From NCBI GenBank assembly GCA_023515795.1, contig JALGPX010000027.1:62001-100070 (forward strand): 38,070 nt of DNA, read 5' to 3'. A model generated the notes under the pieces. It was not told the DNA's origin and did not search any database. It was given only the letters and a program-made list of their open reading frames with translations. The stretch is from Amoeboaphelidium occidentale (Eukaryota). The position numbers and the translations under genes are program-made. This document shows positions 36,170-36,330 of the stretch, in pieces; the stretch's first letter is position 1; the number at the start of each line of letters is the position of its first letter.

Positions 36170-36330
36170 TTTGATGAGTTTAAGTAATCAGCACTTTTGT
36201 GCTACGTTATTCAGCACTAGACTGAAAAACGCGGAATTCCAACTACTCAACTCGGTATATGTAACAAACGCTATAAAATAGCAATGTACTCCGTAAGACC
36301 CTCCGCAATTAAGCATTGGTTGAGCTACAA
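36170..36330 (-). ncRNA. Candidate Fanzor omegaRNA (scaffold plus flank-derived guide)
   Basis: Directly 3' of the Fanzor stop. Nested stems GCGGAG/TTCCGC, CGG..GTACA.TGCTAT-TTT-ATAGCG..TGTTAC..CCG, an 11-bp hairpin CGTTTTTCAGT-CTAGT-GCTGAATAACG, and AGCAC-AAAA-GTGCT. Boundaries are inferred. Confidence 0.6.

Follow-up and report, generated by a model that had tools for sequence, protein, structure and literature searches.

The locus and its Fanzor1 gene

The window, by which we mean the entire 38,070-nt stretch of Amoeboaphelidium occidentale DNA that was analyzed, is gene-dense eukaryotic DNA with genes for HSP90, an Mtr4-like helicase, a P-type ATPase, and an Argonaute, which were named from the translations of their open reading frames (ORFs) and, in the case of Argonaute, also by Pfam. 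The Argonaute gene (33540 to 36113, plus strand), the last exon of which (35982 to 36113) is inferred via a GT..AG intron at 35946 to 35981, is convergent to a Fanzor1 element on the minus strand; 62 nt lie between its inferred stop and the element end at 36176. The Fanzor1 ORF (36309 to 38070, minus strand) encodes 558 amino acids from the ATG at 37985, and its frame is open to 38069 and runs into the window end. Elsewhere in the window, mutually similar membrane-protein ORFs are arranged in tandem (24194 to 26673, plus strand), and runs of N at 3912 to 3930, 6770 to 6778, 16971, and 27917 to 27937, with duplicated sequence on either side, look like assembly artifacts that split or repeat genes.

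The original prediction, made from the sequence, that this ORF encodes a Fanzor was borne out, and the following matches assign it to Fanzor1. (i) The protein contains the Pfam domain Cas12f1-like_TNB (E = 1.2e-9). (ii) A sequence search of the Protein Data Bank (PDB) returned only two matches, PpFz1 and SpuFz1. (iii) With the AlphaFold model (pLDDT 76.9, pTM 0.53), the top seven Foldseek matches were Fanzor1 structures (SpuFz1, GtFz1, and PpFz1; E values of 4.5e-16 to 7.8e-10), at low TM scores of 0.31 to 0.37. (iv) The RuvC triad (D311, E486, and D521) and the TDG motif of the WED domain (T264-D265-G266) are present, and six residues separate E486 from C493. (v) Row 1441 of supplementary file 3 of Saito 2023 is a 558-residue FZ1 of A. 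occidentale that matches the window ORF, as compared over the first 400 residues. The gene itself is thus already catalogued; the same file (PMC10432273) holds about 20 Fz1 proteins under this species name. The five closest matches of the window protein (78 to 97% identity) are all annotated as A. occidentale, and sister proteins are longer at the N terminus by 170 to 200 residues. A search of viral contigs with the protein gave no matches.

Copies of the element were compared using contigs of 6 (X1 to X6) of the 16 listed runs, at 80% likeness, with X1 to X4 covering 35900 to 36700 and X2, X3, X5, and X6 covering 36040 to 36345. The C4 zinc finger is broken in the window copy (C493, C496, Y511, and C514). 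Of 23 aligned rows, 21 have Cys at position 511, the other two being one gap and the query with its Tyr, and the codon at 36454 (Tyr511 codon 36453 to 36455, minus strand) encodes Cys in contigs of all four runs X1 to X4. Judged from these alignments, Tyr511 is a private lesion of this copy and the finger is intact in the family; the Tyr at a zinc-ligand position may impair the protein of this copy. Separately, loose ends of X1 to X4 contigs at 36400 to 36446 and 36604 to 36647 continue in frame, by hand translation, as a second, divergent Fanzor1 family that resembles row 1444 of the Saito 2023 file.

The right end of the element and its empty site

The 133 nt behind the Fanzor1 stop (36176 to 36308, minus strand) are a conserved noncoding right end and the predicted omegaRNA scaffold region. 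They match contigs of six runs, which then exit into unlike flanks. Exit points were taken from the listed loose-end rows, with each run counted once and neighboring places merged per row. Among the 19 contigs listed, 11 exit at 36175 to 36176, 5 at 36169 to 36171, 1 at 36178, and 2 at 36182; at least three of the flanks are found in more than one run, and the window itself may derive from X1. Eight of the listed records start exactly at 36176 (three from X1, one from X2, one from X3, and three from X5), and the base after CTC is therefore often not A. The extensions to 36169 to 36175 are best explained by A/T-rich flanks resembling one another, and the two exits at 36182 belong to one 56-nt fragment (36182 to 36237) in X2 and X5. 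Because the copies are alike to 36176 and their flanks diverge below this position, the last base of the element is 36176 (CTC-3'), at a distance of 133 nt from the stop. Aligning the 3' ends of copies, the check proposed together with the original prediction, hence revealed a region conserved up to a sharp end and then variable flank. The scaffold had, however, been expected to end at 36188 to 36199, where none of the 19 listed contigs exits; the true end lies 12 to 23 bases further.

A number of additional observations concern this right end. The 56-nt piece at 36182 to 36237 stands alone between unrelated flanks and is identical in X2 and X5; it is either a fragment left by decay or a sister family's end. 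Some of the copies part from the rest upstream of 36297 (36297 to 36305; two X2 contigs with 8 loose letters, and similar cases in X3 and X5), representing a subfamily or ORF-less ghosts. Depth peaks over 36194 to 36226 were considered as a count of such ghost copies and rejected, since overlapping contigs are summed; single-contig depth ratios (1118/108, 57/9.3, 35/7.2, and 85/12.9) only hint at 5 to 10 copies. No second copy or terminal inverted repeat (TIR) of the right end was found within the 38,070-nt window, a 22-nt right-end pattern had no match in metagenome contigs, and Rfam returned a single chance match (E = 1.4). Since the base that follows CTC is variable, a Helitron-type fixed insertion dinucleotide was rejected, and TTGAT/TCAA at 36171 to 36175 was rejected as an IS605-like end because the same letters occur in the empty allele.

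This empty allele is represented by an X2 contig (8764 nt) and an X5 contig (261 nt), which match the flank to 36175 and then share the same 30 unrelated letters; an X3 contig (1273 nt) departs at the same base. The insertion behind Argonaute is thus missing in X2, X5, and apparently X3. No similarity exists between the element's last bases and the empty allele. The unrelated letters of the latter would be the left flank of the filled allele, the left junction of which lies beyond the window end at 38070. Read along the element strand, the empty allele has TCGTA as the five letters on the 5' side of the flank. This one empty site gives TCGTA as the candidate target-adjacent motif (TAM) in the absence of a target duplication; with a duplication, the motif would end in the first flank letters. 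The comparison with an empty site proposed in the original prediction therefore yielded a candidate TAM, while the length of a target site duplication (TSD) is unreadable from right junctions. A target duplication of the Spu-1/Mariner type is absent at the right end, because CTC is followed not by TA but by a varying base (AT in the window); a variable duplication on the flank side may be compatible with the right junctions alone. In an independent observation, X5 contigs match the Argonaute last exon and then diverge within 36041 to 36120, which points to a paralogue or an allele.

By analogy with characterized Fanzor1 systems, in which guides of 14 to 15 nt are reported (PMC10432273), the guide is likely read from the host flank starting at 36175 or from behind a target duplication on the flank side. 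The predicted 15-nt guide covers 36161 to 36175 (minus strand) if there is no target duplication and is otherwise shifted outwards by the length of the latter. This host sequence is present in the empty allele and is antisense to the 3' region of Argonaute.

We also retrieved 89 loci of distant relatives, whose best segments are 22 to 41% identical; in metagenomes, 80 of 141 were retained. None shares sequence with the window right end (best E = 0.18). Among the 86 loci with a usable stop, seven multicopy groups were recognized by eye in which conservation extends about 60 to 160 nt past the stop and then drops, structure being uncontrolled for in this comparison; as far as their sequences tell, these groups have the same layout as the window element. 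Two distant Fanzor1-like loci, L018 (about 1999 to 2036) and L086 (about 472 to 509), carry inverted post-stop sequence upstream, i.e., apparent TIRs of 36 to 39 nt.

Predicted fold of the right end

Folds were computed with ViennaRNA, which scores structures free of true pseudoknots. Read along the minus strand, the predicted fold starts with a 6-bp GCTAT hairpin with a UUU loop (36269 to 36283; pair probabilities of 0.71 to 0.98; no variant listed), a candidate first stem-loop. It is followed by a variable linker (36254 to 36268), with substitutions at 36257, 36262, 36264, and 36265 and deletions at 36258, 36261, and 36265. Next comes a terminal stem of 13 bp with three G.U pairs and one bulged A, in which the 5' arm (36253 to 36241) pairs with the 3' arm and last element bases (36189 to 36176, ending in CTC-3'). 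The stem encloses hairpin A (36204 to 36232), with 10 pairs and one U.U mismatch at probabilities of 0.72 to 1.00, or 11 pairs with G36232.U36204, and hairpin B (36190 to 36203; AGCAC-AAAA-GTGCT; 0.90 to 1.00). Within the terminal stem, 11 pairs have probabilities of 0.83 to 1.00, and the two beside the sliding A bulge have 0.31 and 0.62. The last three element bases are paired at 0.94 to 0.98, and the stem closes exactly on 36176, the last base as located independently from the copies. In one 145-nt fold, part of the predicted guide pairs with upstream sequence.

The 81 nt from 36176 to 36256 fold at -27.7 kcal/mol (z = -4.96; 0 of 300 shuffles as low); the 3' limit of this segment was set by the copies, and its 5' limit was picked after the fold had been seen. 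As background we used 380 81-mers, taken at a step of 200 from both strands and each compared with 25 shuffles; 1 of them reached z <= -4 (-4.23). Sliding windows gave z = -4.5 at start 36168, z = -4.6 at start 36174, and values near 0 from 36192 on. The expectation that the region folds better than shuffled sequence thus held for 36170 to 36330 (z = -2.18; 6 of 200 shuffles) and failed for the scaffold originally claimed, 36195 to 36310 (z = +0.23; 111 of 200).

The predicted fold agrees with what is reported for Fanzor1 scaffolds: their terminal nucleotides form a double-stranded stem (PMC10711439), their RNAs are described without the pseudoknot of TnpB and Fanzor2 (PMC10711439, PMC13565253), and RNA lengths range from 75 to 150 nt (PMC11423790). 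The first stem-loop has seven base pairs in the three Fanzor1 structures described (PMC11423790), versus 6 bp (36269 to 36283) or 10 to 11 bp (36204 to 36232) in the two candidates here.

Variation among copies was compared with the fold using the 14 substitutions and 4 indels listed in 36176 to 36290 away from contig ends. No compensatory double change was found among them. Five of the six substitutions at paired positions disrupt pairing. One of these five lies at 36228, a position at which the window differs from most other copies, whose hairpin A is less perfect. Variable positions make up 9 of 84 paired versus 8 of 31 unpaired positions, a difference that is not significant (Fisher's test, p = 0.07). 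Four of the five loop positions of hairpin A vary, which is weakly consistent with a hairpin.

Interpretation and comparison with known systems

Taking together the observed protein family, boundary, divergent flanks, and empty allele and the predicted fold, our preferred reading, to which we assign a probability of roughly 0.7, is that 36176 to 36308 is the conserved right end of a multicopy Fanzor1 DNA transposon ending at 36176. This right end would likely serve as an omegaRNA scaffold, composed of the predicted 5' hairpin, the linker, and the 13-bp terminal stem around two hairpins, and the guide would likely come from the host flank at 36175. To judge from characterized Fanzor1s, an RNA of about 110 to 150 nt, running about 15 nt past the element end, would load onto Fanzor1. 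The resulting ribonucleoprotein (RNP) would recognize a TAM that contains A/T and lies 5' of the guide match, and would cut the empty allele, and repair from the filled allele would restore or spread the element; transposition proper would need a transposase in trans. The RNA of this copy would still be loadable by sister proteins.

Three other readings of the region have to be weighed. There is a small chance that the scaffold is shorter and PpFz1-like, with an RNA that starts from AUUCC (about 36238) and comprises about 63 nt plus guide, in which the protein would bind hairpin A as the first stem-loop, followed by hairpin B as the second. In Saito 2023 file 5, the RNAs of SpuFz1 and PpFz1, as compared by eye, start with UUCC or AUCC directly before the first stem-loop, just as AUUCC directly precedes hairpin A; the PpFz1 RNA is given as only 75 nt (PMC11423790), and hairpins A and B form without upstream sequence. 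However, such an RNA (-18.0 kcal/mol) would leave the last 14 element bases unpaired, unlike the reported Fanzor1 terminal stem. Hairpin A would also have 10 to 11 bp instead of 7, and its variable loop contrasts with the first loop of SpuFz1, which is reported to be heavily contacted by protein (PMC10432273). We give a likewise small, if anything smaller, chance to the structure being a by-product of subterminal transposase repeats, with the end kept as a terminus and not, or no longer, as a guide scaffold. This would account for an 11-nt direct repeat (36185 to 36195 and 36208 to 36218, 23 nt apart) with inverted partners, the sequence of which makes subterminal transposase sites possible. 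The missing covariation and the damaged zinc finger of this copy point in the same direction, as does the folding of both strands (z = -3.6 for the opposite strand), their DNA energies being nearly equal (-12.3 and -11.9). Against it, the RNA energy is -27.7 on the element strand versus -21.0 on the opposite strand because of the three G.U pairs of the terminal stem, which favor an omegaRNA's expected strand and polarity. In addition, the catalytic residues are retained, as is the Cys codon at 36454 in sister copies, and the two roles are compatible, TIRs being part of known Fanzor1 scaffolds (PMC10711439).

The architecture of the original prediction, namely, a GCGGAG/TTCCGC helix, hairpin A pseudoknotted to AGCAC, a scaffold end at 36188 to 36199, and the guide behind it, appears very improbable to us. 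Its motifs all exist on the minus strand: GCGGAG (36301 to 36306), TTCCGC (36231 to 36236), GCTAT-TTT-ATAGC (36270 to 36282), AGCAC (36199 to 36203), the hairpin at 36205 to 36231 (loop 36216 to 36220), GCTCAAC (36319 to 36325), and GTTGAGT (36245 to 36251). Two of its elements, the GCTAT hairpin and the 11-bp hairpin (10 pairs and the U.U mismatch), reappear in the ensemble at the probabilities given above. A common variant at 36305 turns C-G into U.G and keeps the long helix possible, and a pseudoknot of this kind is present in TnpB and Fanzor2 RNAs (PMC10711439). Once the true end is included, however, the GCGGAG/TTCCGC helix has a probability of 0.00, and forcing it costs 4.3 kcal/mol; it appears only with the sequence cut at 36188 to 36199, where z is -0.9 and +0.2. 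The pairing of GTGCT (36213 to 36217) with AGCAC (probability 0.00; +7.4 kcal/mol) would replace hairpin A rather than form a pseudoknot, since only two of the five letters lie in the loop. Changes of G36217 and C36214 occur in other copies, and none is listed for AGCAC. This alternative pairing arises from the 11-nt direct repeat: a second GTGCT (36190 to 36194), which had been missed, as had the terminal stem, pairs with AGCAC over the AAAA loop of hairpin B. The further pairing of GCTCAAC with GTTGAGT also has a probability of 0.00. As the copies are alike to 36176, the guide as proposed would consist of element sequence that does not vary, and Fanzor1s are reported without a pseudoknot (PMC10711439, PMC13565253).

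Beyond the preferred reading, the locus may be viewed as a polymorphic Fanzor1 insertion 62 nt behind Argonaute with a guide that targets the empty allele, where the RNP would cut and so drive homing into the 3' end of a host RNAi gene. We consider this extension unlikely, though by no means far-fetched. Homing as the purpose of Fanzors is a published hypothesis (PMC13565253), and the legend to Fig. 6 of Saito 2023 leaves their role open (PMC10432273). If the homing reading were true, the locus would offer a ready-made pair of filled and empty alleles with which to test, in a eukaryote, the homing role of Fanzors, which is still unproven; its scaffold would have a branched terminal stem, and its element, unlike Spu-1, ends in CTC without TA.

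A full-text literature search gave no paper on Fanzor in Amoeboaphelidium or aphelids or on transposable elements of this species, its scope being literature outside subscription journals and Repbase; in the supplements of Saito 2023 consulted (PMC10432273), the genus appears only in the protein tree table and is absent from the files of tested omegaRNAs. Within the literature searched, the omegaRNA, element end, and target site of this catalogued Fanzor1 have thus not been described before. The layout is the published standard for Fanzor1 and would not surprise a specialist. For a Fanzor1 family that is 18 to 19% identical to SpuFz1, the corrected boundary, the fold, and the empty site supply a scaffold, a guide, and a candidate TAM that can be tested; the function that Fanzors have for their transposons is an open question, to which the naturally occurring pair of filled and empty alleles is relevant.

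The ends of Sola2/MuDR elements often read G...C. Fanzor1 elements of the Sola2/MuDR type (DFa and PPa; ROr-4, PBl-3, as well as MCi-4; PMC3627910) are described with 4-bp or 9-bp TSDs, which would fit an A/T-rich insertion without TA duplication as seen here; the first four flank letters, however, do not fit their AWWT pattern, and the left end of the element lies outside the window. TnpB (IS605/IS607) and Fanzor2 resemble the system predicted here in their right-end RNA (reRNA) and flank-derived guide but need a 3' pseudoknot (PMC10711439), and none is supported in the window right end. In that type of pseudoknot the five bases before the guide take part; the corresponding bases here, 36176 to 36180, all sit in the predicted terminal stem, and AGCAC lies 23 nt inside the element.

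The closest characterized system is SpuFz1 with its element Spu-1 from Spizellomyces punctatus (PMC10432273, PMC11423790, PMC3627910; PDB 8gkh and 9ceu to 9cez), which shares the Fanzor1 fold and motifs and gave the best Foldseek matches. A CUAGUGC common to the window and the SpuFz1 RNA, noticed by eye, was dismissed as being within chance. Protein identity is 18 to 19%. The two elements differ in the stop-to-end distance (133 nt here versus about 75 to 80 in Spu-1), in the end (CTC without TA duplication here), and in the terminal stem, which is predicted to be branched here, unlike that of the SpuFz1 RNA. Like the window element, Spu-1 is described as multicopy, with a single ORF and a conserved stop-to-end region followed by variable flank, and in both the terminal stem, predicted in our case, closes next to the guide. 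The predicted scaffold is also like that of GtFz1 from Guillardia theta (PMC11423790), whose long, 150-nt RNA has several further stem-loops that separate the first one from the guide.
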